Shown: positions 17,902 through 53,809, numbered from the stretch's first letter. The stretch: DNA of 64,000 nt from Promethearchaeota archaeon (GCA_019058445.1 JAHPZA010000009.1:658355-722354), one strand, 5' to 3'. A program made the numbers and translations. The notes: generated by a model not told the origin, from the sequence alone.

Positions 17902-17939
17902 TCATAATTTTTAAAATTCAGAATTCAATCTTATAACTT

Positions 17940-27199: not shown

Positions 27200-28492
27200 A
27201 TGGAAAAAACTAAGGATCAAAAAGTCTTTACCAAGGAATTAAAGATTCAAACATTCATAATTGGGATTGTGTTTGCTGCTGATATGATTTTCGGTTTTGC
27301 AGAACAAAATTTCCTTAATACCTATCTTGTTCACGTTTTGGGTTTAACAGAACTACATGTTGCAATTATGGTTTCATTATCGGCAATTATGGGACTTATT
27401 TTTCTTCTTGTATGGGGGATCATCTCCGATAATACGCGTTCGAAACATGGAAGAAGAAAACCATATTTGCTTATTGGAGGAATTATTTCTGGAGTGGCAA
27501 TGATTATTTATGCATTTTCCCCTAATTTTTACTGGGCATTATTTCTAGATGTTGTGATAATCGGTATATTTTCTAATGCATATTTCGCGGGTGAAAGAGC
27601 ACTAGTCCCTGATACTATTGAACCAGAATTGCGCGGAAGAGCAAATGGAATTATTCAATCATTTGCTAATTTGGGAATTTTAGTAGCCGTTGCAATTTTT
27701 TTAATATCTTATGAACTGTTTGCAATTGATAATCCAAAAGGTTCTGGAACAATTTTAACTCAAGAGGGTCATTTATTTGTTCTTGGAATAGGAGGTATCG
27801 GTTTCGCGTTATGTGGAATAATTGGATTTGTTTTTATTAAAGAAAAATCGGTTACGGAATTGCCCCCCAAAAAAAAATTCTTTGTTGAGCTTAAAGAAAT
27901 CATAGATATTGAAGAATTTAAGGAACAAAAAGAATTCTATAAAATTACTTTAGCATATTTAATATTTCAAACAGGGATTGGGTGTATCTTACCTTTTCTA
28001 TTCATATATCTATTTGCTTTAGGCCTCACAACCTTAGAACTTTTAATGGCAATCGGTATGGGTTTTCCGATATTAATAATCGTCACAATATTCTTAGGTA
28101 AACTAGCAGATAAACATGGTCGAAAGAAATATATTCCTGCTATAATTGTTATCATCAGTGTTGGCGTATTTTCAACAATTTTCGTGAGAAACGATGCAGG
28201 GGTAAATTTAATCCTGTTTTTTATTCTTCTTCCATTTATTTTAGTGGCTATTTTAGGAGTTCGAGCAATCCTTGATACTTGGTCTCAAGACTTGTTGCCT
28301 CCAGATAAAAGAGGTAAGTTTTTCGGGATCTTAAATATAGTCTTTACACTTTCACAAATAGTAGGCGCTTTAGCAGCAGGATTTATAGCTACTCTTTATG
28401 GATTAGATTGGATCTTTGTTTTAGGAACAGTATTTTTCTTGGTTTCGATTATATTTTTTCTGAGAGTTGAAGAAACTTTAGTAGTTGATTAA
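27200..28492 (+). CDS. MFS transporter of the GPH / SLC45-like type, tandem copy 2
   Basis: Collinear with 25773-27068 (GIISDNTRSKHGRRKPYLLIG, EPELRGRANGI, SELPPKK, WSQDLLPPDKRGKFFGILN). Confidence 0.75.
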   Translation: MEKTKDQKVFTKELKIQTFIIGIVFAADMIFGFAEQNFLNTYLVHVLGLTELHVAIMVSLSAIMGLIFLLVWGIISDNTRSKHGRRKPYLLIGGIISGVAMIIYAFSPNFYWALFLDVVIIGIFSNAYFAGERALVPDTIEPELRGRANGIIQSFANLGILVAVAIFLISYELFAIDNPKGSGTILTQEGHLFVLGIGGIGFALCGIIGFVFIKEKSVTELPPKKKFFVELKEIIDIEEFKEQKEFYKITLAYLIFQTGIGCILPFLFIYLFALGLTTLELLMAIGMGFPILIIVTIFLGKLADKHGRKKYIPAIIVIISVGVFSTIFVRNDAGVNLILFFILLPFILVAILGVRAILDTWSQDLLPPDKRGKFFGILNIVFTLSQIVGALAAGFIATLYGLDWIFVLGTVFFLVSIIFFLRVEETLVVD

Positions 28493-29527: not shown

Positions 29528-30553
29528 TTATTTTTTCTGTGGTTCTACAATGATCTTAATCCATTTTTCTCTATCATAATATCTGAACGCATCTACAGCT
29601 TCTTCTAATGTAATTCTTTTAGTAATTAGACTTTCTAAATCTAATTTTTTGCTAGCAATCATATCAAGTGCATCGTCCCAGTAATCTTTATCCGCCTTTG
29701 AATTTACCATTGCCTCAGGATATACTAATTCCACACCTTTTTTTCGGCAATTTACATAAGGTATATATTGCATCTTTTGAGCTCCGAATACAATAACTCG
29801 ATAACCTGATTTAATTATATTAATGGCATCAAGAAGCGTGTCATTATGACCAACCATTTCAAAAACAGCATGCGCTTCACCAAAATTCTTTTTAATCTCA
29901 TCTGCCACTGAGTAATTTCCATGAGTTGCTCTAGAAAATTCATCTGGATTAAACACTTTTGCGCCCCATTTTTTAGCAATATCTCTTTTATGATGGTAAG
30001 GCTCGCTTGCAGCAACCTCAATGTTATTGTTTAATAATATTTTTGTAAGTATTAGTCCTATTGGTCCAAGCCCAATAACTATAGCCTTCTTCTCACCTTC
30101 AATTTTATCAAGTTCAGCTCTCTCATAGCAATTTATTGCACACCCAACAGCATCAGCAAATGAAATCTCGTCCATAGTAAGATCATTTCTTACAATCGGA
30201 ACTCCTCCAGTTAATTCATCTTTCCCATGTCCAACTACATTAACATGAGTAGAATATTCTGCATAACCTTGCCCCATTCTTGCTAAATGATCCCCAACAT
30301 TTATTTTACCCTCTAAATTTTTCCCAACTTCTACGGTAATTGCTCCAGTTTCATGCCCATGTCCTCCCGGCTCATGAGCAATAATCCAATGATCTCCTTC
30401 AAATATCCCTACATCGCTTCCACAAATACCAACAGATATCATTTCGGCCAAAATTTGGTTAGGTTCGGGTTTAGGGATATCGAGCTCTATAAGCTTAACT
30501 ACCCAAGGTTCTGGAAATAACAAGGCTTTCATTTTTCCTTCCATATAACTCAA
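29528..30553 (-). CDS. Zn-dependent medium-chain dehydrogenase/reductase (sugar or polyol dehydrogenase-like)
   Basis: GICGSDVGIFEGDH and GHGHETGA (catalytic Zn ligands). Rossmann VIGLGPIGL. Confidence 0.85.
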   Translation of the reverse strand: MSYMEGKMKALLFPEPWVVKLIELDIPKPEPNQILAEMISVGICGSDVGIFEGDHWIIAHEPGGHGHETGAITVEVGKNLEGKINVGDHLARMGQGYAEYSTHVNVVGHGKDELTGGVPIVRNDLTMDEISFADAVGCAINCYERAELDKIEGEKKAIVIGLGPIGLILTKILLNNNIEVAASEPYHHKRDIAKKWGAKVFNPDEFSRATHGNYSVADEIKKNFGEAHAVFEMVGHNDTLLDAINIIKSGYRVIVFGAQKMQYIPYVNCRKKGVELVYPEAMVNSKADKDYWDDALDMIASKKLDLESLITKRITLEEAVDAFRYYDREKWIKIIVEPQKK

Positions 30554-30589: not shown

Positions 30590-33397
30590 TTATCTTCCTC
30601 TAATACCGTCAATTAACATCATTATTAAATCGCCAATACTCAAGGGGAGTCCCCCTCCGTGTTCTTCTTCTTGCGCATTAGGATCAAAGTTTTCGTTTAC
30701 TTTTCTTACCCATTCTAAATAAGATAAGTTCATTAAATCATCAATTTCGTATTCTCTTTTAATAGATTCTGCTATTTCTCCATAATGAGAGAGATTATTT
30801 ACTAAATTCATTTTATCTTTTTTTCCAATAATAACTAATGGTGGTAATGAAAAATGATCTGCAAGAGACTGTACAGATTCAGGAGGTTTATCTCCTTTAT
30901 AGGGTGCGATGATTAAATCAAAATTCAAAGTTTTTCCATTATAAGTTGGTGCTGTTGGTTGGTCTTGATGAGTTAAGAATTTTTCTGCTATTTTATAGGC
31001 ACGACCTGAGCCTGTTGTCCAATAATGTAATATTTTTCCATAATAATTTCCAAAGGGATTAATTCGAACTTGTTGACCCTTTTTATATCCATCTCCAAAC
31101 CCTTTATCTTTAATCTTTAAAGGACTAAAAGCAAAGTTAGATGCTTTTAACGAATTGAATCCTACTAATATACCATTTTTTCTGTCTGAAACAGCCATCC
31201 ATCCATCAGAGATATTACTTACAAGGTTATCTATATTTTTATTCCGAGAATCGACTTCCCGTATATCAAGATCGAAATAAGATACTCTACCTAAAAAATT
31301 TCTTTTCCATATTCTTAATGGTTCATTATTGCCGATAAGATTAGGTTTAATTTCACATGGGATAACTTCTTGCCATCTATTATCATATTTCTCAGCAACA
31401 TAAGCATGACCATCTTCAATAGTACTTTCACCTATGATGTCGCACAACTTCATTTTAACATCCACGAACATCGCTGGAACCCCTGAATATAGGATAAGTA
31501 TTTTTTCTGATTGGACGTCATATCCCCTTAAAATTTCAAATTTACTATAAATTTTAATTGATGCTGAAAATCCATCACTTCCATCTCTCAAAATCTCAAT
31601 CCTATTACGGTTTGAATGATATCTCTTTCCATTTTTTGATTCTCCGAAGGTCACAGCAGATTCTAAAAAATTTGGGCATGCTAAATCTACTCCATTAAAA
31701 TTAAATGAGGTTATTAGACCATTATCATTCAAAATTAATTCTATTATTTCATTTTGCAGAGATCGAATTGTTGCTTTGATTTTTCCGTTATTCTTTAGAT
31801 TGTTAGCTGAATTATTTAATGATAATTTAGAAAGATAGATCTTTTCTGATTCGAATACTTCTTTTGGAACTATAGCTTCAAGAAAAAGCCCATGGTTCGA
31901 ATTGTCATCATATAATCCGTATTTAAAATTTCTTAAATTCAAACCTTTATCATTATTTAATAATTCATTTGATAGTTCCTGAGGGAGTTTTGTTTTTATA
32001 AGAACTGATGAATTAATCTGACTTTTTTCTTGTTCTGTGATGCCCCTGTTTAGTATAGGGCAAATTATCATATTATAATCATTATTTTCAATCCTATTGG
32101 AAATATATTTAAAAGATTCATCGATTGCTAAATTCACAGCATTTTCAGCAGCATTATGAGCTTTTAAAGCGTAAGCCATTCCGGTTTTGATTCTAGTTGG
32201 ATGCATAAAGGGTACAGATAAACCAAAATTTGTAGTAGAAGCGAGTAATATTTTATTTTTAATATATGATTCCGAAGAATCCTTTTCATTGCGAATTAGA
32301 TTATTAATGTTAGCTTTTTTATTTTCTACCATATTTTGAGAAATTAAAGTATCTGAAATGCACTTTTGCCACCTTGCTCTTTGTCCGATTGTCCATAATT
32401 TAGTATTATCATATTTCTGAGCCCAATTGTAAAATCCATTATTAAGCCCATCAGCAGCATCAGGATACAATGTTGTCTCGCCATGAATTTTGAGTTTGGG
32501 GATAACATCTAATAAGTTTGCGAATTCTACGTAATCTAGTAAATCAACCGCTTCAGCAAATTCAATTAAACCTCTTGTTTTAGGCATCCATTGTAAAAAC
32601 TTAGGTAGTTTTTGTGGTAACCACAAATCAACATCCATATCAAAATTGAAGAATAATAGGGCATGTCCTGTGATTTCACCTTTTTCTTGCATTTTTCTTA
32701 TCAATTTAAACCATCTTTTTATCGAAAAATAGTCCACTACATCTCCAAAAGCATACATTGGAATCATTATCATCGAGGCATCGGAAATTGATGAATTGAA
32801 TTTTACTAAACCATATCTCTGATTAGTATTTAACCGCGGATTTAAAAAGGGTCTTCCGACGTCAAAAGGATACACACAATAATAAATGCAAATTCCCTCT
32901 ACACCAATTTTATTATAAAGTTCAATCATTCCTTGAGTAAACATCGTTTCTTGAGTACGGGCGTAAGGTGCAATCCTTCCTGGAAATAACTGTTTCAAAC
33001 CAATTCCCATTTCATTCTCTAAAAACCATTCATGATCGCGAACAAATTCTTCACTATCAAGCATTGGTTTCGCAACATTGCCCCAAGATCCAATTAAAAC
33101 TTCATCTTTTCCTTTTTTACATCGCTCAATTACTCGTTCCAATACATCTTGCTGGTACTCTTGTTGAAGTTGTATAGACCAAAAAGTATCACCGTAATCC
33201 CAAGTAATTTTCATATCTTTAAAAGAAAATCCCTTTTCTTCAATTTCATCTAATTTATCAAGAATAGCTCTCATAGTCGTAAGATCAGTTCCGAAGCCAT
33301 CCCTCCCTCTTGAATCTCCCCGATAAGAATGATAATAATTAATATGGGGAGAGATCACAAAAAATATCTTTTTTTCTTTTAAATCCAATTTATTCAT
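30590..33397 (-). CDS. Large divergent GH57-like glycoside hydrolase / glucanotransferase-like protein
   Basis: By-eye collinearity of the N-terminal ~260 aa with GH57 regions: KIFFVISPHINYYH vs INFIFGIHNHQP; KKGKDEVLIGSWGNVAKPML vs KRGQLEIVVAGFYEPVL; ARTQETMF vs WLTERVW (nucleophile Glu); LLFFNFDMDVDLW vs VAVFHDDGEKFGVW. I do not recognise the ~650-aa C-terminal part. Confidence 0.4.
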   Translation of the reverse strand: MNKLDLKEKKIFFVISPHINYYHSYRGDSRGRDGFGTDLTTMRAILDKLDEIEEKGFSFKDMKITWDYGDTFWSIQLQQEYQQDVLERVIERCKKGKDEVLIGSWGNVAKPMLDSEEFVRDHEWFLENEMGIGLKQLFPGRIAPYARTQETMFTQGMIELYNKIGVEGICIYYCVYPFDVGRPFLNPRLNTNQRYGLVKFNSSISDASMIMIPMYAFGDVVDYFSIKRWFKLIRKMQEKGEITGHALLFFNFDMDVDLWLPQKLPKFLQWMPKTRGLIEFAEAVDLLDYVEFANLLDVIPKLKIHGETTLYPDAADGLNNGFYNWAQKYDNTKLWTIGQRARWQKCISDTLISQNMVENKKANINNLIRNEKDSSESYIKNKILLASTTNFGLSVPFMHPTRIKTGMAYALKAHNAAENAVNLAIDESFKYISNRIENNDYNMIICPILNRGITEQEKSQINSSVLIKTKLPQELSNELLNNDKGLNLRNFKYGLYDDNSNHGLFLEAIVPKEVFESEKIYLSKLSLNNSANNLKNNGKIKATIRSLQNEIIELILNDNGLITSFNFNGVDLACPNFLESAVTFGESKNGKRYHSNRNRIEILRDGSDGFSASIKIYSKFEILRGYDVQSEKILILYSGVPAMFVDVKMKLCDIIGESTIEDGHAYVAEKYDNRWQEVIPCEIKPNLIGNNEPLRIWKRNFLGRVSYFDLDIREVDSRNKNIDNLVSNISDGWMAVSDRKNGILVGFNSLKASNFAFSPLKIKDKGFGDGYKKGQQVRINPFGNYYGKILHYWTTGSGRAYKIAEKFLTHQDQPTAPTYNGKTLNFDLIIAPYKGDKPPESVQSLADHFSLPPLVIIGKKDKMNLVNNLSHYGEIAESIKREYEIDDLMNLSYLEWVRKVNENFDPNAQEEEHGGGLPLSIGDLIMMLIDGIRGR

Positions 33398-33598: not shown

Positions 33599-34360
33599 AT
33601 GACAAACTCGAATAACTATGTACTAATTACAGGTGCGAGTAGTGGTATCGGAAGAGCGACCGTAGAATTTTTAGCTTCAAAGGAATTTTATGTGTATGCT
33701 GGTGCCCGAAAACAAGAAGATATCAGAGAATTAAATAAGCTAGGAAATGTGACTGCTCTTGAAATCGATGTTACAAAGCAAGATACAATTGAAAATGCAG
33801 TTAAATATATTAAAAACCAAAAAACAGGTTTAAATGCTCTCATCAATAATGCTGGTATTGCTCGTGCAGGTCCTTTGATGGAATTGCCAGTAAAAGAGTT
33901 ATACGAGCAGTTTGATGTTAATCTATTTGGAATACATCGAATAACTAGAATGGTGTTTCCCTTGTTATTAGAATCAAAAGGAAAAATAGTTATGATGAGC
34001 AGTGATTCTGGATTCTTTGCATCTCCCTTTTTTGGACCTTATTGCTCCAGTAAATTTGCTTTAGAGGGATACTCTGATTCACTTAGAAGAGAGTTGATTA
34101 TTTTGGGCGTTAAAATTGTGATAATTGAACCTGGAAGGGTAAATACATCGATATGGGAAAAGGGCGAAGTTTTACTTAATTCCCTTTTAGCAAGACTAAA
34201 GGGGTCCATTTTTGAAAAGATTGCAAAGGAAGTTGGAGAATATGCTATTAAAAAAGGTAAAACTGAAAGCTTGGATCCTATAGAAATTGCTAAGCTAATA
34301 TATAAAATACTAAATCTTAAAGAGCCAAAAACGAGATATTTAACAGCACCGGATAAATAA
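33599..34360 (+). CDS. Classical short-chain dehydrogenase/reductase; its C-terminus appears interrupted by an in-frame TAA
   Basis: TGASSGIGRA, NNAG, and catalytic S...YCSSK. See the finding on the stop at 34358-34360. Confidence 0.9.
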   Translation: MTNSNNYVLITGASSGIGRATVEFLASKEFYVYAGARKQEDIRELNKLGNVTALEIDVTKQDTIENAVKYIKNQKTGLNALINNAGIARAGPLMELPVKELYEQFDVNLFGIHRITRMVFPLLLESKGKIVMMSSDSGFFASPFFGPYCSSKFALEGYSDSLRRELIILGVKIVIIEPGRVNTSIWEKGEVLLNSLLARLKGSIFEKIAKEVGEYAIKKGKTESLDPIEIAKLIYKILNLKEPKTRYLTAPDK

Positions 34361-34625
34361 AGGTATAAACTTATAAAAATATTACCGGATAAAACAATTG
34401 ATAAAAGGCTTGAAAAAGAATTTAAAAAAATAAAATAATTTTATTTGAAGATACTAACAAGATATTGAAAGGGTTCTTATTTTTGTTATTTCATTAAGTT
34501 TAAGATTTCGAAATTACCAATCCAATTTAAAATGGTTTAAATATTATAATAAAATATTACACTTTATCATGGCTAACAAGAGATGATTATTTTCTATCAT
34601 TTCTTAATAAAGGAAGGTAAAAAAT

Positions 34626-35678
34626 ATGCCAAATAGGATAAAATTAGCAATAGTGGGAATAGGTAATGCTGCTTCGGCTCTGATTCAAGGCATTGAGTAT
34701 TATAAAGATCGTTCCTTTAATAAGGGTTTGTTATATCCTACATTTGCAGGATATCATATAACTGATATTGAGATCTCTGCTGCATTCGATATTTCTGCTA
34801 ATAAAGTTGGAATGGCTCTTAATGAAGCATTAAAATCCAATGAATTACAAATTATTGTAGACTTAAGTAATCAAGATAAAATTGTCTCAATGGGGGTAGT
34901 TAAAGATGGAATAATTAAAGAGACAATTGGAAAGATTAACCCTTCAAATGCTCCATCTATTAATATAGCAGATAAATTAAGGGATTCGGCTACTGAGATT
35001 GTTCTTTGCCTATTACCATCTGGTGCAGATGAAGCAGTGGAATTCTATGCAAAACAAGCGTTAGATGCCGGTTGTGCTTTTATTAATGCTACTCCAACTT
35101 CAATTGCGACAAACAAAACTTTTGCTAAAAAATATCAAGATGCTGGGCTCCCTCTAATTGGAGACGATCTTCAAGATCAATTTGGAGCAACAATTGTTCA
35201 CAAGCTTCTTTTACAACAGATGATAGATCAAGGAGTTGAAATTAAAGAGAGTTATGCCTTAGATGTTGGGGGAGGATTAGAGTCCTTGAATACAATCTAT
35301 CGAACGCGTCATGTAAAACGGGAAATTAAAAGTAAATCTGTAGCTGCTGCCCTCAAAATAAATGCTCCTATTGTAGCAGGAACTTCTGATTATGTTCCCC
35401 ATTTAGGAAATAGTAGGAATTCCATGTTATGGTTAGTAGGACAAGGTTTTTTAGGGTCAGAAATAATAATGGATATTAAAATCCAGACGCAAGACGGGCC
35501 TAACGGAGGCGCAATTTTGATTGACGTAATTAGAGCCACCAAAATCGCCTTACAACAAGGAGCATCGGGGTCGATAAATGAGATATCAAGTTATGGATTC
35601 AAAAATCCCCCCAGACTGATAAGTAACCCAAAAAAAGCGGGAGAGGACTTAGCAAAATTCATTATGGGGATGATGTAA
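34626..35678 (+). CDS. myo-Inositol-3-phosphate synthase family, paralogue 1 (shortest and most divergent)
   Basis: IKLAIVGIGNAASALIQGIEYYK, LPLIGDDLQDQFGATIVHKLL, DVGGGLESLNT, IKSKSVAAAL and QDGPNGGAILIDVIR are collinear with mycobacterial Ino1 (VGVGNCASSLVQGVEYY, GDDIKSQVGATITHRVLAKLF, NVGGNMDFLNM, SKTQAVTS, DSPNSAGVIIDAVR). Confidence 0.75.
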   Translation: MPNRIKLAIVGIGNAASALIQGIEYYKDRSFNKGLLYPTFAGYHITDIEISAAFDISANKVGMALNEALKSNELQIIVDLSNQDKIVSMGVVKDGIIKETIGKINPSNAPSINIADKLRDSATEIVLCLLPSGADEAVEFYAKQALDAGCAFINATPTSIATNKTFAKKYQDAGLPLIGDDLQDQFGATIVHKLLLQQMIDQGVEIKESYALDVGGGLESLNTIYRTRHVKREIKSKSVAAALKINAPIVAGTSDYVPHLGNSRNSMLWLVGQGFLGSEIIMDIKIQTQDGPNGGAILIDVIRATKIALQQGASGSINEISSYGFKNPPRLISNPKKAGEDLAKFIMGMM

Positions 35679-35683
35679 TAAAG

Positions 35684-36844
35684 ATGAGCAAAACGGATAA
35701 TAGAGAAATACGGGTCGCTATCGCAGGATTAGGTAACGTGGCGGCAGCAATAGTAATGGGTATTGAATACTATAAGAATGTAAAGCAAGAAGAAAAATAT
35801 CAAGCAGGATTGATTAATGCTTCTGTAGGAGGATATTTACCCTCGGATATTAAGATCGTAGCAGCATTCGATATAGCAACAACTAAAATTGGAAAAGATA
35901 TTTCGGAAGCTATTTATGCTGAGCCTAATATGTGCCATCCGATTATACTTCCGGAAAATATGCCAAAATCAAATGCATTATGTTACCCAGGTCCTATTTC
36001 GGATGGGTGTTATCAAACTAAAGACTCAAAGGGAAAAATAATTTTTGACACCTATAACTATTTTAAAGCTTATAATGAAAAAGATGTGAAACCAAGTAAT
36101 ATAACTCAAGTATTACTAGACAATAAAGCACAAATTTTAGTTAATCTACTTCCAGTTGGAAGTTATCAGGCTTCACGAATTTATGCTCAAGCAGCTTTGG
36201 ATGCAAATTGTGCATTAATTAATGGAATTCCTGAATTTATTGTCTCAGAGCAAGTCGAAGGCGATAGAGACTGGGTTGCTGAATTCATAAAAAAAGGTCT
36301 CCCCTGTGCGGGAGATGATATTAAATCTCAAGTTGGAGCAACAATCATACATAGAACACTTGCGAAATTATTCTTAGATCGAGGAGTTATTGTTAATGAT
36401 ACTTATCAATTGAATATAGGGGGAAATGGCGATTTCTATAATATGAAATCAGAAGAACGCCTAACCACAAAACGTAAATCAAAAACATCAGCGGTTACAA
36501 GTGTTCTTCCGTATGGAGATAAAGTTGGTTGTAGAATCGGTCCAAGTGATTATGTGCCATTTTTAGGAGATAAAAAAATCTGTTATATTAGAATTAATGG
36601 AACTACATTTGGAGGGTTACCACTTGTTTGTGATATGAAATTACGTGTTGAAGATTCTCCAAATTCAGCGGGATTAATAATTGATCTTATTCGTCAAACA
36701 AGGTTAGCCATAGATAGGGGGATTGTCGGACGTTTGGACAGTATTAGCTCGTTTAGTTTCAAACATCCACATATTCAACCTTCTTCAGATTTTGAAGCAA
36801 AAAAGTGGGTACAAGAATATATTGAGGGTAAAAGAGAGAGATAA
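35684..36844 (+). CDS. ino1: myo-Inositol-3-phosphate synthase, paralogue 2
   Basis: IRVAIAGLGNVAAAIVMGIEYYK, GDDIKSQVGATIIHRTLAKLFLDRGV, QLNIGGNGDFYNM, KSKTSAVTSVL, EDSPNSAGLIIDLIR, FKHP. Starts 5 nt after paralogue 1. Confidence 0.9.
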   Translation: MSKTDNREIRVAIAGLGNVAAAIVMGIEYYKNVKQEEKYQAGLINASVGGYLPSDIKIVAAFDIATTKIGKDISEAIYAEPNMCHPIILPENMPKSNALCYPGPISDGCYQTKDSKGKIIFDTYNYFKAYNEKDVKPSNITQVLLDNKAQILVNLLPVGSYQASRIYAQAALDANCALINGIPEFIVSEQVEGDRDWVAEFIKKGLPCAGDDIKSQVGATIIHRTLAKLFLDRGVIVNDTYQLNIGGNGDFYNMKSEERLTTKRKSKTSAVTSVLPYGDKVGCRIGPSDYVPFLGDKKICYIRINGTTFGGLPLVCDMKLRVEDSPNSAGLIIDLIRQTRLAIDRGIVGRLDSISSFSFKHPHIQPSSDFEAKKWVQEYIEGKRER

Positions 36845-37009
36845 AAAAAAATTTTTATATCCTATTGATATTTCATAATTTTTTATGAGAGTTCAAATCA
36901 CCAAAAAATGAAGTAAGATCTTTATCGGATTCTATATATTATATAGATTAAAAGCAAGAGCATTTTTTTAAAATGATTTAAATAGGATTATATAATTATA
37001 CCTATTATC

Positions 37010-38101
37010 ATGGCTAATACAATTAATGTTGCCTTAATTGGACTAGGAGATGTAGCCTCTGCATTGGTACAAGGTGTTTCCAATTATAAAAAAAATCCGG
37101 ATAAGATAATTGGTTTACTACCAGAAATTACCCAATATAGTGTTAATGATATTAATTTTGTTGTTGGTTTTGAAGTGAATTCAAATAAAATAGGAAAAGA
37201 TATGAGCGAAGCTATTTTTGCTGAACCTAATTGTAATATGAAATTATACCCTCCTGAGTTCCTAAATGCCCCAATTTTAAGAGGCCCGATCTTAGATGGA
37301 TTAGACAGTAATATTAAGGATATTGTCCCGGTCTCGAATGGAGAAGAAGCTGTTAGCGTATCTAAAGAGATGAAAGATCGATTAGTCGATGTCGCAGTAA
37401 TTCTACTTCCAACAGGAGCACATAAGGCAGTTAAGTTTTATGCCATGGCTGCTCTAGAAGCTGGAGCATGTGTTATTTGTGGTATGCCCTCCCATGTTGC
37501 AAAAAATCCAGAGATTGTTAAAAAAGCCGAAGAATTAAAATTACCATTAATAGGAGATGATGTAAAGTCCCAAATAGGTGCTACTATAATTCATAGATCT
37601 TTAGCAAATCTTTTTCCAATGAGAGGAGCTATATTGGACCGCACAATCCAGCTCGATTGGGGAGGCTGTTCCGATTTTCTAAATCTCTTAACCCCTCAAG
37701 CAGATGGAAAGTTAGTGTATGAAGAAGGGAAGCGTCAATCCAAAACAGAGTCTGTGGTGGCTAAGCTTCAAAATAAAGATACTGTAGAATGCCAAATTTC
37801 GGCAGTAGATTATATTCCTTTCTTAAAAAACCAAAAGGAAGCATATATGAGACTTGAGGGTCGTATTTTTGGAGGTGCTCCTGTTAGAGTGGATATTACA
37901 ATGTTTGTACAAGACGGTAATAATTCTGCTGGCATTATCGCGGACTGCATTCGCATATCTAAGATCGCAAGAGATAGAAAAATAGGCGGAATTCTGTCTT
38001 CAGCATGTTCATTTTTTATGAAACATCCTCCAGAACAATTAGAAGATTATATAGCCAAAAAACATTTGGTAGAATTTATAGAAGGTAATAGAGAAAGATA
38101 A
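37010..38101 (+). CDS. ino1: myo-Inositol-3-phosphate synthase, paralogue 3
   Basis: INVALIGLGDVASALVQGVSNYK, GDDVKSQIGATIIHRSLANLF, QLDWGGCSDFLNL, QSKTESVVAKL, QDGNNSAGIIADCIR, FMKHPPEQL (compare Mtb Ino1 YLMKSPPEQL). Confidence 0.9.
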   Translation: MANTINVALIGLGDVASALVQGVSNYKKNPDKIIGLLPEITQYSVNDINFVVGFEVNSNKIGKDMSEAIFAEPNCNMKLYPPEFLNAPILRGPILDGLDSNIKDIVPVSNGEEAVSVSKEMKDRLVDVAVILLPTGAHKAVKFYAMAALEAGACVICGMPSHVAKNPEIVKKAEELKLPLIGDDVKSQIGATIIHRSLANLFPMRGAILDRTIQLDWGGCSDFLNLLTPQADGKLVYEEGKRQSKTESVVAKLQNKDTVECQISAVDYIPFLKNQKEAYMRLEGRIFGGAPVRVDITMFVQDGNNSAGIIADCIRISKIARDRKIGGILSSACSFFMKHPPEQLEDYIAKKHLVEFIEGNRER

Positions 38102-38144
38102 AATGGGAATTTAAAGAAACTAAATGACAAATTAGCTATATTAT

Positions 38145-39113
38145 TTATGTCATGTACGTTCTTGTCTTTAATCTCATAGGGATTCTTTCATCTATCTTTT
38201 GTCTTGCTATCAAAAATTCATAAATATAGTCAGAGATAAGACTTATCGCTTCAGGAATATTTCTAAAACTGGGGAAGTCATTAATATCTATAATATAAGG
38301 AACACCTTCCTCACTAAAGATGTAATCAATTCCAAAAACAGACATACCAAACTTCTTACTTAATCTCAACACTTTTCTTTTCAATTCTTTATCTATAGGT
38401 ACTCTTATATGTACCATTTCATATGGTGTGAGGGGTCTCTGCTTTATTCTGTTATGGGCAGTTATAGATACCACCCATCGGTCTATTACATATACTTTAT
38501 ATACGATATCTATTTTGCCCAAATAATCTTGGAAGAATAACTCATTTTCATCATAATTTTTAACCAATTCAATGAAATCATTTATATTTCTTGCAATACC
38601 AATAACTCGATCTTCTTTAGGTATATCAGGTGCGTTGTGAATATCATGTTTAATAATTATTTTTACTCCATTACTGCAGGCTAAATAAGCGTCTTTGAGA
38701 GAAAAATATGATTTTGGAATAGGTATTTTTTTATATTTTTCCTCTATACGCTTAAAAGTTGCTTTTCTGCTCTCACAGGTCTGAACTGCTTTTAGGCTAT
38801 TGAGAAGAGGTATTTTTGGGGCATAGATTTTAATAGTATCATATATAATCTGATTTTCCTTTTCAGAAAGTAATTTAACAATGATTAATGAAATTGGATA
38901 CTTTTTTATTTTTTTTCGAAAATATTTAATATCAAAAATTCCTTTTTTATTGCCCTTATGAGGTATGAGATTTACAATTTTGATATTATAGTTAACTTTT
39001 GCAAATTTGATGATCTTCTCAAAAATTTCAAGATCCCTATTGCAAATGGCTCCAATATAGATTTTTTTTATAGACATAAAAAAAAATAAGGGAGTTTGAT
39101 ACCTTAAAAACAA
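38145..39113 (-). CDS. ATP-grasp kinase, ITPK1-like
   Basis: YKVYVIDRWVVSITAHNR and SVFGIDYIFSEEGVPYIIDINDFPSFRNIPE (D-x-N-x-F-P signature). The track start is TTG at 39113; ATG at 39077 (MSIKKIYIG) is more likely. Confidence 0.65.
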   Translation of the reverse strand: MFLRYQTPLFFFMSIKKIYIGAICNRDLEIFEKIIKFAKVNYNIKIVNLIPHKGNKKGIFDIKYFRKKIKKYPISLIIVKLLSEKENQIIYDTIKIYAPKIPLLNSLKAVQTCESRKATFKRIEEKYKKIPIPKSYFSLKDAYLACSNGVKIIIKHDIHNAPDIPKEDRVIGIARNINDFIELVKNYDENELFFQDYLGKIDIVYKVYVIDRWVVSITAHNRIKQRPLTPYEMVHIRVPIDKELKRKVLRLSKKFGMSVFGIDYIFSEEGVPYIIDINDFPSFRNIPEAISLISDYIYEFLIARQKIDERIPMRLKTRTYMT

Positions 39114-39284: not shown

Positions 39285-40121
39285 ATGAGTAAAGTTAAGA
39301 TTGGAATAATTATTGATAGATATCATCTAGAGCAAAAAGCAACAGAATTTTTAAAGTACTTAAAATTGGTTGCAAATGTTTCCTTGTATATTGAAGAATC
39401 ATATCTTTTAAAATCTTTTGACTCCACTTTTGATGAGGATTTATTTTTTGTCAAGGGTAAGGGAGATTTAATATTAGCCCTTGTTAAACTCATTGAAAAA
39501 GAGACGTCAATACCGGTAATTAATTCCTATAAAGGAATTTGGAATGCTATACATAGGTTCATGAATAGCGTTTTATTAAAAAAAGCAGGAATCCCTGTGC
39601 CTGATTTTTCGTTGATTCCTAGTGAATATCCACCACCCTTTGAATCATATATTATAAAAAATATTATTGATCAAAAAAATTACAAATTCAAACCGAATAT
39701 TGAAAATATAAATGGAGCTATAAAAGTAAGCGATGAGAGGGCTTTAACGGAGATGTATAATGGATTTTATGGAGACATGGGGAATTATCACTATCTCTAC
39801 TATCAAAAATTTATTAAAAGCGAATGGGAGTATAAGATCTACATTATAGGGGAAGATATTTACTTTTACAAGCAAATACCAGTGCTTGTTAATCCTAATA
39901 AAATGGAGTCAAGGCGAAAGATTGCCGAAATTCCAGAATTAAAAGAATTGGCTTTTAAGGCAGTTAAGACAACCGGATTAAAAATTACATCAATAGATTT
40001 TCTTCAAAATAAAAATGGACAGTTCTTCTTATCGGATATTAATTGTACTCCAAATTTCAATTATATTAAGAATGGTCCAAAAATTGTTGGAGAATATTTA
40101 ATAGAGCAAGCTAAAAAATGA
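39285..40121 (+). CDS. ATP-grasp protein, divergent ITPK1-like
   Basis: EYKIYIIGEDIYFYKQ and LKITSIDFLQNKNGQFFLSDINCTPNFNYI. D-I-N is retained, but F-P-G is replaced by T-P-N. Confidence 0.55.
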   Translation: MSKVKIGIIIDRYHLEQKATEFLKYLKLVANVSLYIEESYLLKSFDSTFDEDLFFVKGKGDLILALVKLIEKETSIPVINSYKGIWNAIHRFMNSVLLKKAGIPVPDFSLIPSEYPPPFESYIIKNIIDQKNYKFKPNIENINGAIKVSDERALTEMYNGFYGDMGNYHYLYYQKFIKSEWEYKIYIIGEDIYFYKQIPVLVNPNKMESRRKIAEIPELKELAFKAVKTTGLKITSIDFLQNKNGQFFLSDINCTPNFNYIKNGPKIVGEYLIEQAKK

Positions 40122-40130
40122 TTTAAAGAA

Positions 40131-40946
40131 ATGACTATGAAGATTGGGATACTCTCAAAAAAAACTACTGGCATGACGGGTTTGATGAGAGAATTTTTTG
40201 AAAATGCGGGACACACTGTGAAAATATATACATTGAAAGATTTATGCATAAATGAAGCACTGTTTGAAAATGATTTTTATGTACTTAAATCAAAAAAAAT
40301 AGTGTATATCTATGCTGGTCATTACTTAGAGAAAAATAATATTCCCGTAATTCCAAATCCAAATACCATTTATAATAATAAAAATCGTATAGAGGCACAT
40401 TATTTAATTAAGCAAACAGGCTTAAGGCTGCCCGAATTTTATTATGGAAAAGTCCAAACTTTAAAAGATCAACTTAAAGCAGATGATTTTCCTTTAATTT
40501 TAAAACCAATTATGGGTTCTGGGAGTAGAGGCATAAAAAAAGTAATTTCATTTGACGATTTAGAGCCGAAAAATGATCAACCATTATACTTAGAAAAATA
40601 TATAGAAGGAACTCATTATTTGGTGTATTTTATTGAAAATCAGGTATGCATTTTAGAAAAACCTCCGCTATCAAATGAACATGTAGAAATGAAGAAAATT
40701 TTACTGAATGACAATAATGAAGATATCCAAGAGGTTGTAATCAAATGGAAATCTTATTATAATCTACAATTTGGCCATTTAGATATTGTAAGAGAAGACA
40801 ATACCAATAAAATTTATCTTGTAGATCCGGGTTCTTTTCCCGAATTCTCAAATTGGTGGTATGATGAGAATCCCACACCTAAAATCTGTAATCTTATATT
40901 AAAAAGATATGAAGATTTAAAACATAATAATCATAAAAATATCTGA
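40131..40946 (+). CDS. ATP-grasp protein (generic RimK/ITPK-like); terminal metal-site motif altered
   Basis: PLILKPIMGSGSRGIKKV (ATP-grasp phosphate loop), LYLEKYIEG, and FGHLDIVREDNTNKIYLVDPGSFPEFSN (D-P-G where the others have D-x-N). Starts 9 nt after the previous ORF. Confidence 0.6.
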   Translation: MTMKIGILSKKTTGMTGLMREFFENAGHTVKIYTLKDLCINEALFENDFYVLKSKKIVYIYAGHYLEKNNIPVIPNPNTIYNNKNRIEAHYLIKQTGLRLPEFYYGKVQTLKDQLKADDFPLILKPIMGSGSRGIKKVISFDDLEPKNDQPLYLEKYIEGTHYLVYFIENQVCILEKPPLSNEHVEMKKILLNDNNEDIQEVVIKWKSYYNLQFGHLDIVREDNTNKIYLVDPGSFPEFSNWWYDENPTPKICNLILKRYEDLKHNNHKNI

Positions 40947-40975: not shown

Positions 40976-41956
40976 TTGAATGACCCAGATAAGTTACAGG
41001 ATTTAGAATTTAAGTCCATAACTGATATGTTTGGAAAGCAAAAAGTTAGACTTTATAAAATAAAACATATTATCTTCGACTTTGGAGGGGTAATGATAGA
41101 AAAAACATTTGTTTTAAAGAATCTGTTTGACATTATTGAAGCTGACTTAAAGCTTTCAATACCTCGTACAGAAGATTCCTATTTTAGAAAACTACGAAGG
41201 CAAGTGAGCTCTGGAATCATATCTTCTCGAGAATTTTTAGAAAAAATGCTAGAAAAATATTATTATCCATTTTTGAAAAATGATGGGGCATTACCGGCAA
41301 AAAGGGCAAATGTCGATTATTATTTAGAGCTCTGGTTCCAGATTTATACAGTAGTTACAAAATTTTCAAAAGATATGGCCGAAATAATTGAAAGATTTCA
41401 TCAGGCCGGTTATATTGTAAGTTTAATGTCCAATACATACGATATTCATGCAAGATCAAATGAATTGAGGGGTTTTTATGATGCTTTTGATAATGTATAT
41501 CTCTCAAGTGAAATAGGGCTTATTAAACCCAATATCGAGAAATACAAATATGTTTTATCAAAATTAAATACGGAACCTAAAAAATGTATATTTATTGATG
41601 ATAAGCTTGTAAATCTTATCCCAGCACGTGAGTTAGGAATCATTGTTATTAGATTTGAGTCATTAGAAAAATTTAAAAAGCAATTGAACCAAATAGGGAT
41701 AAAAAAACTCAGACCTAATCTTAGGCATGAAATAAAAAAAAAGTATAAAAAATATAAAAAGGTTAAAAAGTCTTATAAAAAAGCGAAACGAGCATACAAA
41801 AAGGCTAGGAAAGAATTCTTAAAAAAGAAGAGAAAATCCTCCAAAAGACATAGAGAATTTCGAAGAAGATATGCCGAATATAGGAAGAAAAAACAGGAAT
41901 ATAAAGAAGAAAAAAAGAAAAAGAAGGAATTAATCTCCAAAGTTAGTATTGCTTAA
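40976..41956 (+). CDS. HAD-superfamily hydrolase (subfamily IA-like) with a ~90-aa polybasic C-terminal extension
   Basis: Motif I IIFDFGGVMI (Gly at the Asp+2 position), motif II LMSNT, motif III GLIKPN, motif IV FIDDK. Tail is KKKYKKYKKVKKSYKKAKRAYKKARKEFLKKKRKSSKRHREFRRRYAEYRKKKQEYKEEKKKKKE. Confidence 0.8.
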   Translation: MNDPDKLQDLEFKSITDMFGKQKVRLYKIKHIIFDFGGVMIEKTFVLKNLFDIIEADLKLSIPRTEDSYFRKLRRQVSSGIISSREFLEKMLEKYYYPFLKNDGALPAKRANVDYYLELWFQIYTVVTKFSKDMAEIIERFHQAGYIVSLMSNTYDIHARSNELRGFYDAFDNVYLSSEIGLIKPNIEKYKYVLSKLNTEPKKCIFIDDKLVNLIPARELGIIVIRFESLEKFKKQLNQIGIKKLRPNLRHEIKKKYKKYKKVKKSYKKAKRAYKKARKEFLKKKRKSSKRHREFRRRYAEYRKKKQEYKEEKKKKKELISKVSIA

Positions 41957-41988: not shown

Positions 41989-43275
41989 TTATAAGAAATC
42001 ATTAATGAAATAATCATCACAAAATTCAAGGCGATCTAATGTCCAATCTTTTAATTGGTTGATATAATTCTCAGAATTATATGTTTGTTTCCAGAGATTC
42101 AGATCTTGTTGTACAAAAGGTCTGCATTCACTGTAGATATTAGATATTGTGTTGGAAATTGATTCATTACTCCAAATATTATTCCGCAAATCATTCCAGC
42201 GGTTAGTGCAATTTTGCCTAAAAGTCTGATTATATAACAATCTATCATACAGTCTGTTCTTTGAGCATATCTCTTCTTGTATGACTGTAGACGTATTATC
42301 ATATATAGTTGTGGAATTTTGTCCAAAGCTAATATCAAAATCCCAAGGAATGAGATAAAAGAGTGAATCATGCGAATTTCTTGCAATAAAATAATTTTTA
42401 TCCCAAAAGTCTCCATGGAGCATAAAAAAATTAAACAGAAAAAAATCAATAAGATTAATTTCGCTAAAATTAGCAAAAATTCCATTCTGAGGGTGGTAAA
42501 AAGTGTTATTTAGAGAATTATTAACAAAATCTATCAATGGGGGTAAAATTTTATCCTTTACATAAAATCCCTCATCTTCATTCGGCCAATCTTGTTCCCA
42601 CCGGTCTTTTTCATAAACTGTAAAGTTTGTATAATCTTTAGCTTGAAATATGACGCTTGAATTCGTATAATTCGTTGCGGTCGTTTCATCTATACCCAAT
42701 AATTTACGATCATTCTTCTCAGCAAGTAAATAGAGACCTTTATAATCCCCATTAAAATATAATAATACATATCTCGATCGTGGAAGAATTGCAGTTGGAT
42801 TATTTTCTAATAAAAGATTTCGCCAAAGATTAAATGACAGTTTAGTTTTCAGTCGAGTATAATCATAATAACTGGCAAACAATTGCCAATCGTCATCATC
42901 TCTCATCCCAAGTAAAGGTTCTCCTTTTGATAATTGCAAACGATAACCTTTTTTTGGATATGTTGCGCTTGTTTCACCTCTTATTTTAATTTCGGCTTCT
43001 AATGGATCAATTCTTTCAGAAGATTCTTCACTATCTAATTCAAATACACAATTAGAATAGTTTTCGTTATCAAGGGCTTCATAACAGGTAATATATATTG
43101 TTGGAAAGTCTGGATGGTCATCTGAGGAATCAGATTCTTCTTCTGTCGGATATGGGAAATATATGAAAAAAAGAACTGTGGAAAGAGTAATAATGCTTAT
43201 TAAAATTAGAGATAATAAATTTCTTCTACGTCGGCGCGGTGGGTGCCTATCTACAAAATCTATTGCCTTAACCAT
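41989..43275 (-). CDS. Membrane-anchored CotH-family (atypical kinase fold) protein, predicted extracellular
   Basis: N-terminal RRRRR plus a TM helix. IKIRGETSATYPKKGYRLQL, YVLLYFNGDYKGLYLLAEKNDRK and LIPWDFDISFGQ match my memory of CotH signatures. There are many N-x-S/T sequons. Confidence 0.65.
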   Translation of the reverse strand: MVKAIDFVDRHPPRRRRRNLLSLILISIITLSTVLFFIYFPYPTEEESDSSDDHPDFPTIYITCYEALDNENYSNCVFELDSEESSERIDPLEAEIKIRGETSATYPKKGYRLQLSKGEPLLGMRDDDDWQLFASYYDYTRLKTKLSFNLWRNLLLENNPTAILPRSRYVLLYFNGDYKGLYLLAEKNDRKLLGIDETTATNYTNSSVIFQAKDYTNFTVYEKDRWEQDWPNEDEGFYVKDKILPPLIDFVNNSLNNTFYHPQNGIFANFSEINLIDFFLFNFFMLHGDFWDKNYFIARNSHDSLFYLIPWDFDISFGQNSTTIYDNTSTVIQEEICSKNRLYDRLLYNQTFRQNCTNRWNDLRNNIWSNESISNTISNIYSECRPFVQQDLNLWKQTYNSENYINQLKDWTLDRLEFCDDYFINDFL

Positions 43276-43513: not shown

Positions 43514-44641
43514 TTATTCCTCTTTGGATACTTCTTTCTCTTCCTCGTTAGAATTCTCTTTATTTAATTCTTCTACTTTTTTCATAACAGATTCAGAAGC
43601 ATCTGTGGGAAGTGGCATTTTCTCAAAGACTTCAATAAATTTCACATCGCCAATTTCTAAATGACTCTGCAAATCCATGGCAAGCCCAAATTTCAAATAT
43701 GTAAGGTTTTGAAACATAAACATTTTTGGGATGTAAAATTCGATTGAATTTTCATCTTTATTATAGGTAATCTTAAAATCTGCGATATTTTGTTTAGGGA
43801 TTCCTTTAGAAGTCATGAAATATTCGATTTTCTCATTAAAATCTTCTATTTTATCAATAACTTCTAAATTGTAATCTATGCTCTGCCCTGCGAGTGGATG
43901 ATTATAATCAACAATAACTTTTCCTTGAGCTACTCGGATGACTGTACCCCTCTGAGACTGACCCTGTTGGGTTTGCTTCACAAATTCCTGTCCTAATTCC
44001 GGATTCTTTCCATTGTTCAATTTTCTAAATTTTGCTATCCCAATTCGCTCAATTTTTTGAGGATCACGCTTACCAAACGCTTTTGTGGGAGGAATTCTTA
44101 CGGATTTTTTCTGAAAATAATTCATATCTTTTATAGTCTCTGTAAGACCTTCATTTAAGAAACCAGGTTTTCCCACGATTACGAACTCAGGGGTATAGAA
44201 ACCTTGTTGCTCTTTTTGCTCGTCATAAATCCCTGCTTTTTTAGCATCTTCAACAGAAGAGACCTGAAACACTTTACCTTTTTGAGTTTTAGCAGTGATT
44301 TTCAAAAGAATAAAGTCGCCATCTTCTACTTTTTTATCCCCTAATTGTTTTTTCTTTTCTTCTAACTTTTTAAGTTCTTCTTGAATTCTTTTTTCCTCTT
44401 CATCATCTTCCTTAACACTTTCTTCACCCTCTTCATCGGCTACTGGTTTCTCTGATTGATGTTCTATTAACTCTTTTGCATTATCTATATATTTTTGAGC
44501 TGAAGCCTTACCTATCCCTTTAATTTCTAATAATTCCTCAACTTTAGCATCAGCTAGCTTTTCAACGGTATCTATTCCAGCTCCTTTAAGATCTTCAATC
44601 TTTTTACCAAGTCCTTTTACATCTTCCAATTTTAAGCTCAT
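43514..44641 (-). CDS. Long-type FKBP peptidyl-prolyl isomerase (SlyD-like, with IF insert) fused to an N-terminal (HhH)2 module
   Basis: N-terminal VKGLGKKIEDLKGAGIDTVEKL...IKGIGKASAQKY, an acidic linker, then the FKBP core ending in VDYNHPLAGQSIDYNLEVIDKI (compare SlyD VDGNHMLAGQNLKFNVEVV). Confidence 0.8.
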   Translation of the reverse strand: MSLKLEDVKGLGKKIEDLKGAGIDTVEKLADAKVEELLEIKGIGKASAQKYIDNAKELIEHQSEKPVADEEGEESVKEDDEEEKRIQEELKKLEEKKKQLGDKKVEDGDFILLKITAKTQKGKVFQVSSVEDAKKAGIYDEQKEQQGFYTPEFVIVGKPGFLNEGLTETIKDMNYFQKKSVRIPPTKAFGKRDPQKIERIGIAKFRKLNNGKNPELGQEFVKQTQQGQSQRGTVIRVAQGKVIVDYNHPLAGQSIDYNLEVIDKIEDFNEKIEYFMTSKGIPKQNIADFKITYNKDENSIEFYIPKMFMFQNLTYLKFGLAMDLQSHLEIGDVKFIEVFEKMPLPTDASESVMKKVEELNKENSNEEEKEVSKEE

Positions 44642-53774: not shown

Positions 53775-53809
53775 TTTGATTCTAACTCTCAGAAATTATC
53801 ATTTTTAGC

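Follow-up and report, generated by a model that had tools for sequence, protein, structure and literature searches.

Tandem genes of three apparently ancient myo-inositol-3-phosphate synthase subfamilies in an Asgard archaeon

Results

The locus and its three MIPS-family genes

We analyzed a stretch of 64,000 nucleotides from a Promethearchaeota archaeon (GCA_019058445.1, JAHPZA010000009.1:658355-722354; below, the window), which carries three genes of the family of myo-inositol-3-phosphate synthases (MIPS). These genes, named here P1, P2 and P3, are arranged head to tail on the plus strand and their reading frames are intact. An original prediction, made from the sequence alone, had reported three such open reading frames (ORFs) in tandem, of the lengths listed in Table 1 and with a first gap of 5 nt, and the coordinates confirmed it. 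A purine-rich stretch lies within the 3' end of P1, ahead of P2. The GC content of the window is approximately 31%, and the nearest homologues are annotated as Promethearchaeota, Lokiarchaeota and other Asgard metagenome-assembled genomes. P2 also matched a 793-kb NCBI contig at 100%. Judged by their orthologues, P1, P2 and P3 belong to separate ancient subfamilies, and conservation of each of these extends across Asgard phyla.

All three proteins scored above the gathering score of the PF01658 family (Inos-1-P_synth, 27 bits) and could be aligned end to end with M. tuberculosis Ino1 (1GR0; E = 1.7e-67 for P1 and 5e-82 for P3). For P2, membership was established by sequence, from the full-length alignment with 1GR0 (E = 8.9e-83). 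The second-best solved relative of each of the three proteins was Ari2 (6K96). AlphaFold2 models of P1 and P3 reached a pLDDT (predicted local distance difference test) of 90.0 and 89.7, and their TM-scores against 1GR0 were 0.87/0.93 and 0.84/0.93, respectively. The superposition of these models on 1GR0 far exceeds chance expectation, and in the structure comparison the top 28 matches were all MIPS or Ari2. Lower confidence was confined to residues 220-260 approximately, and the segment around these residues is known to become ordered upon substrate binding (PMC11348189). The scores of P1, P2 and P3 with TIGR03450, the mycothiol-type INO1 equivalog model, were 251.8, 327.6 and 298.3 bits versus a cut-off of 638 bits. 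By this measure the three proteins are homologues, not equivalogs, of actinobacterial INO1, as would be expected outside the actinobacterial clade.

The motifs quoted in the original prediction were all found in the three translations. The dinucleotide loops are GIGNAAS in P1, GLGNVAA in P2 and GLGDVAS in P3, and the motifs of the GDD segment are GDDLQDQFGATIVH, GDDIKSQVGATIIH and GDDVKSQIGATIIH, respectively. The equivalents of NVGGNMDF are DVGGGLES, NIGGNGDF and DWGGCSDF, and those of DSPNSAG are DGPNGG, DSPNSAG and DGNNSAG, in the same order. The KxxxK lysine segment is present in all three proteins.

Divergence, selection and active-site signatures

Pairwise protein identity was 34% between P1 and P2, 32% between P1 and P3, and 41% between P2 and P3. 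Orthologues of P1, 60-90% identical, were found in Prometh-, Thor-, Hod- and Sigynarchaeota and in Lokiarchaeum ossiferum, and those of P2 were 60-90% identical across Asgard. P3 is the most conserved of the three paralogues; its orthologues were 74-94% identical and occurred also in Heimdall-, Hermod- and Odinarchaeota. The ratio of nonsynonymous to synonymous substitution rates (dN/dS) against close relatives was 0.09-0.11 for P1, 0.09-0.12 for P2 and 0.04-0.08 for P3, and all three genes are under purifying selection.

We aligned 359 orthologues (approximately 120 per family) and compared their active-site residues in M. tuberculosis (Mtb) numbering. Like Mtb Ino1 (1GR0; EC 5.5.1.4), P1, P2 and P3 have the MIPS fold, the NAD-binding domain, GDD, KxxxK, D310 and K346, and D197, K248, K252, D310 and K346 are kept in all three families. 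P2 was identical to Ino1 at every active-site position examined (K199, S200, N229, N233, D235, F236, K248, K252, K284, D310, S311, P312, N313, S314 and K346), whereas P1 and P3 lack N229, N233 and S311. The signature of P1, present in 120 of 120 orthologues, consists of K199Q, S200D, N229D, N233G, D235E, F236S, K284R, S311G and S314G. That of P3, likewise present in 120/120, consists of N25D, V148T, N229D, V230W, N233C/S, M234S, P273A, S274V, W285E, S311G and P312N. Positions 229, 233 and 235 are thus N, N and D in P2, D, G and E in P1, and D, C/S and D in P3. The substrate-contacting lysine at position 284 (yeast K412, AfMIPS K306) is kept in P2 and P3 and is an arginine in all 120 P1 orthologues. 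K199Q and S200D would be changes of the phosphate-binding loop, and N25 of P3 is presumably the equivalent of the cation-coordinating asparagine of the fungal enzyme. The dinucleotide-binding loop reads GxGN in P1 and P2 and GxGD in P3 (120/120 orthologues). Since the glycine spacing of the GxGD loop is unchanged, P3 probably retains NAD binding despite this substitution.

Among 172 MIPS from all domains of life, conservation at the yeast equivalents of positions 229, 232, 233, 235, 248, 252, 284 and 310 is 90% or higher (PMC5614600), with the yeast-to-Mtb correspondence being our own position mapping (N350 = 229, N354 = 233, D356 = 235; the KxxxK pair = K369/K373). The importance of the KxxxK lysines, D310 and K346 is taken from the same paper. 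The validated enzymes of M. tuberculosis, T. maritima, A. fulgidus and yeast all have N at position 229, and the A. fulgidus enzyme has D at position 233.

The altered site in the wider MIPS family

A profile search of 1.84 billion cluster representatives yielded 3,704 members of the MIPS family, and we classified the top 150. Approximately 98 of them were canonical. The P1-like signature (D229, G/S233, E235, R284) was found in approximately 16 independent 50%-identity clusters and the P3-like signature (D229-W230, A273-V274, K284-E285, a small residue at 311) in approximately 9. With the diagnostic columns removed, the P3-like set formed a clade in 112 of 200 neighbour-joining (NJ) bootstraps (56%), and the P1-like set was a clade, with lower support, if one truncated sequence was included. 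Both subfamilies occur beyond the close Asgard orthologues as well.

Among 149 family representatives D229 was never combined with N233 (0/25), while N229 was combined with it in 118 of 121. S311 was lost in 18/23 representatives with D229 versus 5/110 with N229 (Fisher p ~1e-13, uncorrected for phylogeny). Family-wide, the states at positions 229-233-311 were either N-N-S or D-(G/D/S/C)-(G/A), in almost perfect covariation. Because D229 excludes N233 and travels with the loss of S311, this pattern indicates that the N229/N233/S311 site was rebuilt as one unit. We found no description of a coupled 229/233/311 triad in the accessible literature.

Non-Asgard P1-like genes were alone in 48 of 53 loci, that is, there was no second MIPS gene within 6 kb. 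We therefore rejected the idea that P1-like proteins must in all cases be partnered with a canonical MIPS. In a set of these loci (L091-L127) the P1-like gene is embedded in a housekeeping block (glycyl-tRNA synthetase, ribosomal P0/P1, tRNA endonuclease), and an archaeal origin of the set is inferred from these neighbouring genes. A convergent neighbour with an SIS-type GMGGSAIGG motif was conserved in 25 loci and, from this motif, would be phosphoglucose/phosphomannose-isomerase-like. Two metagenomic proteins had unusual architectures. P0365 (567 aa), a non-Asgard P3-like protein, carries a C-terminal S-adenosylmethionine (SAM)-dependent methyltransferase (PF08241, E = 3e-16), a fusion which implies that P3-like enzymes may make a small molecule that is methylated afterwards. 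P0363 (837 aa) is a canonical MIPS split by an intein with a LAGLIDADG homing endonuclease (PF14890, PF14528).

Origin of the array

We compared the window with other loci that carry these genes. The gene order SDR-P1-P2 was seen in the window and in loci L006 and L007, and the triplet P1-P2-P3 was found, besides L011, only in the window and L006. In a hodarchaeote assembly P1-P2 (L004) and the P3 cluster (L017) were located on different contigs. In the window SDR-P1-P2 sits between a 935-aa gene and P3. Locus L012 has the flanks of the window, namely the MFS, dihydrodipicolinate synthase (DHDPS)-like, zinc-dependent alcohol dehydrogenase (Zn-ADH) and 935-aa genes on one side and P3 with the ATP-grasp genes on the other, without SDR-P1-P2.

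Nucleotide identity to L011 was 87-91% across P1-P2 versus 78-81% in P3. The same step was visible between 33599-36844 and 37010-39113, with 87-91% versus 78-84% for L011 and 78-84% versus 72-74% for L006. Synonymous divergence (dS) was 0.41-0.49 in P1/P2 versus 1.70 in P3. These differences suggest a later exchange or insertion of SDR-P1-P2, relative to the sequence around it. Because identity and dS change at the boundary between P2 and P3, and because L012 has the flanks without the block, we read SDR-P1-P2 as a separately inherited insert. To judge from these comparisons, the array is an SDR-P1-P2 module placed beside P3 in one clade, and the paralogues were secondarily juxtaposed.

P3 and its conserved cluster

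We scanned one genome per species and obtained 80 Asgard loci with P3, in which the neighbours were called by ORF and BLAST analysis. A convergent ITPK-like ATP-grasp gene directly follows P3 in 67 of 69 loci, and two further ATP-grasp genes lie downstream in 61/63. The cluster includes a HAD phosphatase in 45 of 57 loci and an HHH-FKBP gene in 56/57. A more distant ITPK-like gene (30/42 loci) and an MFS gene (16/42 genomes) were found upstream of P3, and the 935-aa gene, with a Zn-dependent dehydrogenase, lies immediately upstream of it in 14/59 genomes. P1 or P2 was present in only one of the 80 P3 loci (L011). P3 is thus a MIPS-family gene flanked by ITPK1-like ATP-grasp genes, the arrangement by which an ITPK-IPS cluster is recognized, and P1 and P2 are part of such a cluster in this clade only.

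In the window, the best PDB matches of the convergent ATP-grasp protein were ITPK1 structures (2ODT, 2QB5; E = 1.4e-3), and the upstream ITPK1 homologue matched the ITPK1 structures 7TN6 and 8OXE at E ~1e-6. The 935-aa protein had no match in Pfam, NCBIfam or PDB sequences. Lys and Arg are extremely abundant in the C-terminal tail of the HAD phosphatase, approximately 90 aa long, and next to this gene lies a gene for a CotH-family kinase with an N-terminal transmembrane segment (41989-43275, minus strand). We also found a full Asgard P3/ITPK cluster, with a P3 78% identical to that of the window, in L072 (DATKTW010000070.1), a contig labelled 'Candidatus Nanopelagicaceae bacterium' and probably mis-binned.

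Conservation across Asgard phyla extends to the 50 nt upstream of P3 (36960-37009 in the window), whose consensus, TTTTAAAATGATTTAAATATTATCATTTTATTATAGAAAATATC-ATG, is common to 43 loci including the window. The mean frequency of the top base was 0.75 at positions -45 to -1 versus 0.49 farther upstream. A TATA-like TTTAAATA is located at -33 in 29 of the 43 loci, among them the window, where it lies at 36977-36984. The promoter and leader are conserved in nucleotides although the synonymous sites of the gene are saturated. Since this conserved element is intact in the P2-P3 spacer, transcription of P3 is in all likelihood independent of P1-P2. An inverted repeat, AAAATGAT...ATCATTTT, flanks the TATA-like box in 17/37 loci and is a possible repressor site. 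The repeat is not universal around this box, and the window lacks its right arm. A bacterial promoter/terminator scan gave 37 sites versus 31 expected; it is uninformative for an archaeon and was discarded, and the archaeal TATA-like elements were identified by comparing genomes.

The P1-P2 pair, helix-turn-helix fusions and a candidate operator

The junction between P1 and P2 was between -8 and +7 nt in L004, L005, L006, L008 and L009, and ranged from an overlap to +22 nt in L171-L174. Tight pairs were present in Hodarchaeota (L004), Promethearchaeota (L008, L173, L174), Thorarchaeota (L009) and Sigynarchaeota (L171, L172). This spacing indicates that P1 and P2 are translationally coupled, which would be the normal state in Asgard. 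In L004 and L008 the pair lies inside clusters with TagF-like glycerophosphotransferases (Glyphos_transf), glycosyltransferases, a nucleotidyltransferase, a sulfotransferase and ABC2 exporters. Such neighbours are a hint that Asgard archaea may have a teichoic-acid-like polymer with inositol phosphate as a constituent.

An N-terminal extension of approximately 45 aa was present in 62 of 120 P1 orthologues. These extensions matched several Pfam families of the helix-turn-helix (HTH) clan at residues 10-41 (E 1e-5 to 1e-3), and 51 of the 62 contain the motif [IV]S[RK]xT[IV]xR[IV][KR]. The P1 of the window has no HTH and no N-terminal extension, and the 266 nt upstream of it are non-coding.

Four independent genomes (L001 L. 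ossiferum, L002, L008, L174) have a direct repeat, TAGTAACA-N11-TAGTAACA, upstream of the HTH-P1 gene, at 18-60 nt from its ATG. Its coordinates are L001:9964-9989, L002:9941-9966, L003:5543-5568, L008:9944-9969 and L174:2941-2967. In AT-rich genomes, each HTH-fused P1 orthologue that we examined had the repeat just upstream, and in L174 the repeat abuts a TATA-like box. It occurred nowhere else in the 2.1 Mb of fetched loci, the window included (0.34 expected by chance). The GC-richer loci L171-L173 have the variants AGTCAC(A)/GGTAACA, and in non-HTH P1 loci neither the repeat nor its variants were found. A search for an inverted-repeat operator of HTH-P1 gave only weak AT-rich palindromes; the conserved element, found by alignment, is the direct repeat. 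We propose it as a candidate operator for a putative MIPS-fold transcription factor.

The remaining part of the window

The rest of the window resembles an ordinary archaeal chromosome, with genes for FttA/aCPSF1, EF-2, TFIIB, the proteasome, MttB methyltransferases and sensor kinases. A scan for tRNA and rRNA markers detected one tRNA-Gly only. Three paralogues of a DUF998 membrane protein lie in tandem at 17278-19212 (plus strand), and at 52248-56101 the gene of a corrinoid-binding protein is flanked by two genes of MttB-family methyltransferases.

Table 1. Features of the MIPS locus and of the P3 cluster in the window.
Feature	Position	Strand	Length	Match	Remark
Clear ITPK1 homologue	24795-25682	-		PF05770, 52.8 bits	Upstream of the cluster
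MFS transporter	25773-27068	+		PF07690, E = 3.5e-40
MFS transporter	27200-28492	+		PF07690, E = 1.3e-45
Zn-dependent dehydrogenase	29528-30553	-			Optional upstream part of the P3 cluster
935-aa protein	30590-33397	-	935 aa		Optional upstream part of the P3 cluster
SDR oxidoreductase	33599-34360	+		PF00106, E = 5e-44	Travels with P1-P2 in this clade
P1, MIPS-fold protein of the P1-like subfamily	34626-35678	+	350 aa	PF01658, 58.8 bits
P1-P2 junction	35679-35683	+	5 nt		Gap (TAAAG) directly after the P1 stop
P2, canonical MIPS (predicted glucose 6-phosphate to myo-inositol-3-phosphate synthase)	35684-36844	+	386 aa	PF01658, 110.7 bits
P2-P3 spacer	36845-37009	+	165 nt		T-run after the P2 stop and P3 promoter
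P3, MIPS-fold protein of the P3-like subfamily	37010-38101	+	363 aa	PF01658, 74.3 bits
ITPK-like ATP-grasp protein	38145-39113	-		PF05770 Ins134_P3_kin, 24.7 bits (gathering 23)	Convergent with P3
ATP-grasp protein	39285-40121	+			RimK-like by sequence
ATP-grasp protein	40131-40946	+			RimK-like by sequence
HAD-family phosphatase	40976-41956	+		PF00702, E = 2.3e-14	Lys-rich C-terminal tail
HHH + FKBP-like protein	43514-44641	-			Marks the conserved end of the P3 cluster

Discussion

On balance, and with modest confidence, we interpret the array as two independent inositol modules of an Asgard archaeon that now lie side by side. The data show that the genes are intact, to which subfamilies they belong, purifying selection, synteny, coupling, the HTH fusion and the promoter motifs; from these we infer the roles of P1 and P3, any enzymatic activity, DNA binding and the interaction between P1 and P2.

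The first module would be the operon SDR-P1-P2. P2 is very probably a canonical MIPS, which would act as an ordinary NAD-dependent synthase converting glucose 6-phosphate (G6P) into myo-inositol-3-phosphate (Ins(3)P). P1 is an ancient MIPS-fold paralogue in which the NAD loop, KxxxK, D310 and K346 were kept and the substrate pocket appears rebuilt, with K199Q and S200D in the GDD-x-KS loop, the N229/N233/S311 triad replaced, D235E and K284R. It may be a ligand-binding protein that acts together with P2, tuning or extending the pathway of the latter. The HTH in half of the P1 orthologues, together with the putative direct-repeat operator in the P1-P2 promoter of four independent genomes, suggests autoregulation. 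In the window, where P1 has no HTH, the effect might be exerted via protein-protein contact with P2 or via a second enzymatic step. Taken by itself, a role of P1 as a ligand-binding regulatory partner or sensor is quite plausible, though a little short of probable; an enzyme with a new activity is a substantial possibility, and a plain MIPS is improbable.

The second module would start at P3, with its own conserved promoter. P3 would be a cyclitol-phosphate synthase dedicated to the conserved ITPK cluster of Asgard archaea. It would provide inositol monophosphate, or something closely similar, for further phosphorylation by the ITPK-like ATP-grasp kinases encoded next to it. Turnover and transport may be the task of the HAD phosphatase and the MFS transporters. 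We think it somewhat probable that P3 still converts G6P into inositol monophosphate, possibly with a changed dependence on cations, and rather unlikely that it uses a different substrate or makes a different product.

The interpretation differs in part from the original prediction. Its idea of functional divergence stands, as each copy has its own invariant active-site signature under constraint, while its description of a triplication in one locus does not: the copies are 32-41% identical, they belong to separate Asgard orthologous groups, and P1 and P2 are absent beside P3 in 79 of 80 genomes. It had also overlooked the ITPK-like kinase genes around P3. The two outcomes that it gave as refuting it, near-identical dosage copies and relics, were both tested and rejected. 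Among the explanations it listed, hetero-oligomers or partner proteins have gained circumstantial support from the translational coupling of P1 and P2, and a regulatory role from the HTH in 62/120 P1 orthologues and the promoter repeat in four independent genomes.

The linkage of ITPK and IPS genes in Lokiarchaeum is already known: four ITPK1 homologues (LcIK) flank two IPS genes (Desfougeres et al. 2019, PNAS, PMC6900528). ITPK1 phosphorylates Ins(3)P, and LcIKC restores inositol hexakisphosphate (IP6) in yeast plc1-delta (PMC6900528). The published flow leads from G6P to Ins(3)P and on to higher inositol phosphates, with the IPS of the cluster assumed to make Ins(3)P (PMC6900528). The P3 locus resembles that cluster in having ITPK1-like ATP-grasp genes around a MIPS-family gene, which is here general to 67/69 Asgard species representatives. 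The published work treats IPS as a generic MIPS, whereas the linked P3 appears to be a distinct subfamily with a non-canonical active site. Further, unlike in the published picture, the canonical MIPS (P2) is normally located elsewhere, paired with P1, and unlike the four ITPK1 homologues of the LcIK cluster, two of the four ATP-grasp genes of the window are not clearly ITPK-like. What is new, therefore, is the near-universality of the linkage in Asgard, the assignment of the linked synthase to a non-canonical subfamily, the three constrained MIPS subfamilies, and the HTH-fused paralogue with its candidate operator. We found no treatment of Asgard MIPS paralogues in the searchable literature, nor any mention of the subfamily split, the non-canonical ITPK-linked copy or the HTH fusion.

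Some enzymes carry a fused DNA-binding domain and control the pathway in which they act, for example PutA, BirA and NadR. The HTH-P1 orthologues resemble them in joining a metabolite- and NAD-binding enzyme fold to an N-terminal HTH and in having a repeat at their own promoter; they differ in that their DNA binding is a prediction, and the P1 of the window itself has no HTH. No transcription factor with a MIPS fold was found in the literature searched. CDP-inositol-dependent pathways include IPCT/DIPPS of di-myo-inositol-phosphate synthesis and the TagF-like polymerases. The gene company of P1-P2 in L004 and L008 would fit an activated inositol phosphate that is built into a surface polymer, but in the window none of the CDP-inositol-type genes of L004/L008 adjoins P1-P2.

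Several points weigh against the two-module interpretation. Most catalytic residues are retained in P1, which might be nothing more than an enzyme. In L. ossiferum P1 and P2 are not linked, and outside Asgard P1-like genes are mostly solitary (48/53 loci); therefore P2 is not strictly required by P1, and an autonomous enzyme would agree with this as well as a partner would. N229D need not alter the chemistry, because N255 of AfMIPS, at position 229, was reported to lie distal to the substrate, with a possible allosteric role (PMC11348189). P3 could then be an ordinary MIPS. Active-site signatures seem to predict function poorly in either direction, since Ari2 changed its substrate yet kept the canonical signature. 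Two of the four ATP-grasp neighbours are RimK-like, not ITPK-like. Bootstrap support in the NJ analysis is modest (P3-like clade, 56%; P1-like clade, less), and the covariation statistic for positions 229, 233 and 311 ignores phylogeny.

One alternative, which we consider rather unlikely, is that P1, P3 or both use the MIPS scaffold for a reaction of another kind: on another hexose or heptose phosphate, towards another cyclitol stereoisomer or ring size, as in Ari2, or as an NAD-dependent epimerisation of the product of P2. Ari2, a five-membered cyclitol-phosphate synthase of aristeromycin biosynthesis, shares the MIPS fold and is a precedent for a new function. It keeps the canonical N229, N233, D235 and K284, however, while P1 and P3, 28-30% identical to it, have other residues changed, and its gene belongs to a bacterial antibiotic gene cluster. 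The invariance of the altered residues is in favour of a different reaction, as are the methyltransferase fusion of P0365, the isomerase-like neighbour (by its motif) of the solitary P1-like genes of non-Asgard archaea, and the SDR oxidoreductase that accompanies P1-P2 in the clade of the window. All this is evidence from sequence and gene context, and the ITPK context points to an inositol-like product of P3. Besides, the HTH fusion and the promoter repeat suggest that P1 regulates, instead of or besides catalysing. A combined reading, in which the ITPK-linked P3 is not a standard MIPS (with another cyclitol phosphate, sugar phosphate or cation mechanism) and P1 is a MIPS-derived metabolite sensor, appears doubtful; such a P1 would be a transcription factor if HTH-fused, and otherwise a regulatory or accessory subunit of P2.

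It is unlikely, too, that all three proteins are ordinary myo-inositol-3-phosphate synthases, that is, isozymes whose substitutions tune cation dependence, regulation or stability, with P3 feeding soluble inositol phosphates and P1 and P2 feeding lipids or surface polymers. The complete fold and the five residues kept in all three families (D197, K248, K252, D310, K346) would agree with this, and so would the D at position 233 of the validated A. fulgidus enzyme, the possibly distal or allosteric nature of position 229, and the assumption of the published model about the cluster IPS. Archaeal MIPS can be metal-dependent class II aldolases, while eukaryotic MIPS use monovalent cations (PMC11348189), and the acidic substitutions N25D and N229D could merely switch the cation. 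On the other hand, D229 never occurs with N233 among the 149 representatives and goes with the loss of S311, which points to a coordinated rebuild and not to drift; P1 invariantly has K284R, D235E and QD in the GDD-x-KS loop, and no validated MIPS carries the states of P1 or P3. Redundancy would hardly explain three isozymes kept over hundreds of millions of years together with tightly coupled P1-P2.

A recent local triplication with rapid divergence, or a simple dosage duplication into near-identical copies, is hardly credible: the genes do lie in tandem on one strand, but the identity between them is low, their signatures are family-specific and invariant in approximately 120/120 orthologues, each copy has 60-94% identical orthologues in several Asgard phyla, and in other genomes P1-P2 lies elsewhere, even on another contig of the same assembly as P3 (L004 versus L017). 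The notion that P1 and P3 are decaying or unexpressed relics can practically be dismissed as well: they do differ at residues with 90% or higher conservation in MIPS, but these substitutions are themselves invariant, dN/dS is low (0.04-0.11; 0.04-0.12 with P2), orthologues are widespread, the reading frames are intact, the folds are confidently modelled, and P3, the most conserved copy, has a strongly conserved promoter.

In summary, two widespread archaeal MIPS subfamilies that were so far uncharacterised have been identified. If the HTH-fused P1 proteins are regulators, they would be a new type of metabolite-responsive regulator on an isomerase fold. The view that soluble inositol-phosphate metabolism is older than eukaryotes has its main evidence in the Asgard ITPK1 homologues. 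This argument assumes that the neighbouring IPS makes Ins(3)P, and the linked gene belongs to a distinct, extremely conserved subfamily with a rebuilt triad. As a fully canonical MIPS is encoded elsewhere in the same Asgard genomes, the Ins(3)P assumption is directly testable. If P3 is not a standard MIPS, the ancestral ITPK pathway would have had a substrate other than the one assumed at present.

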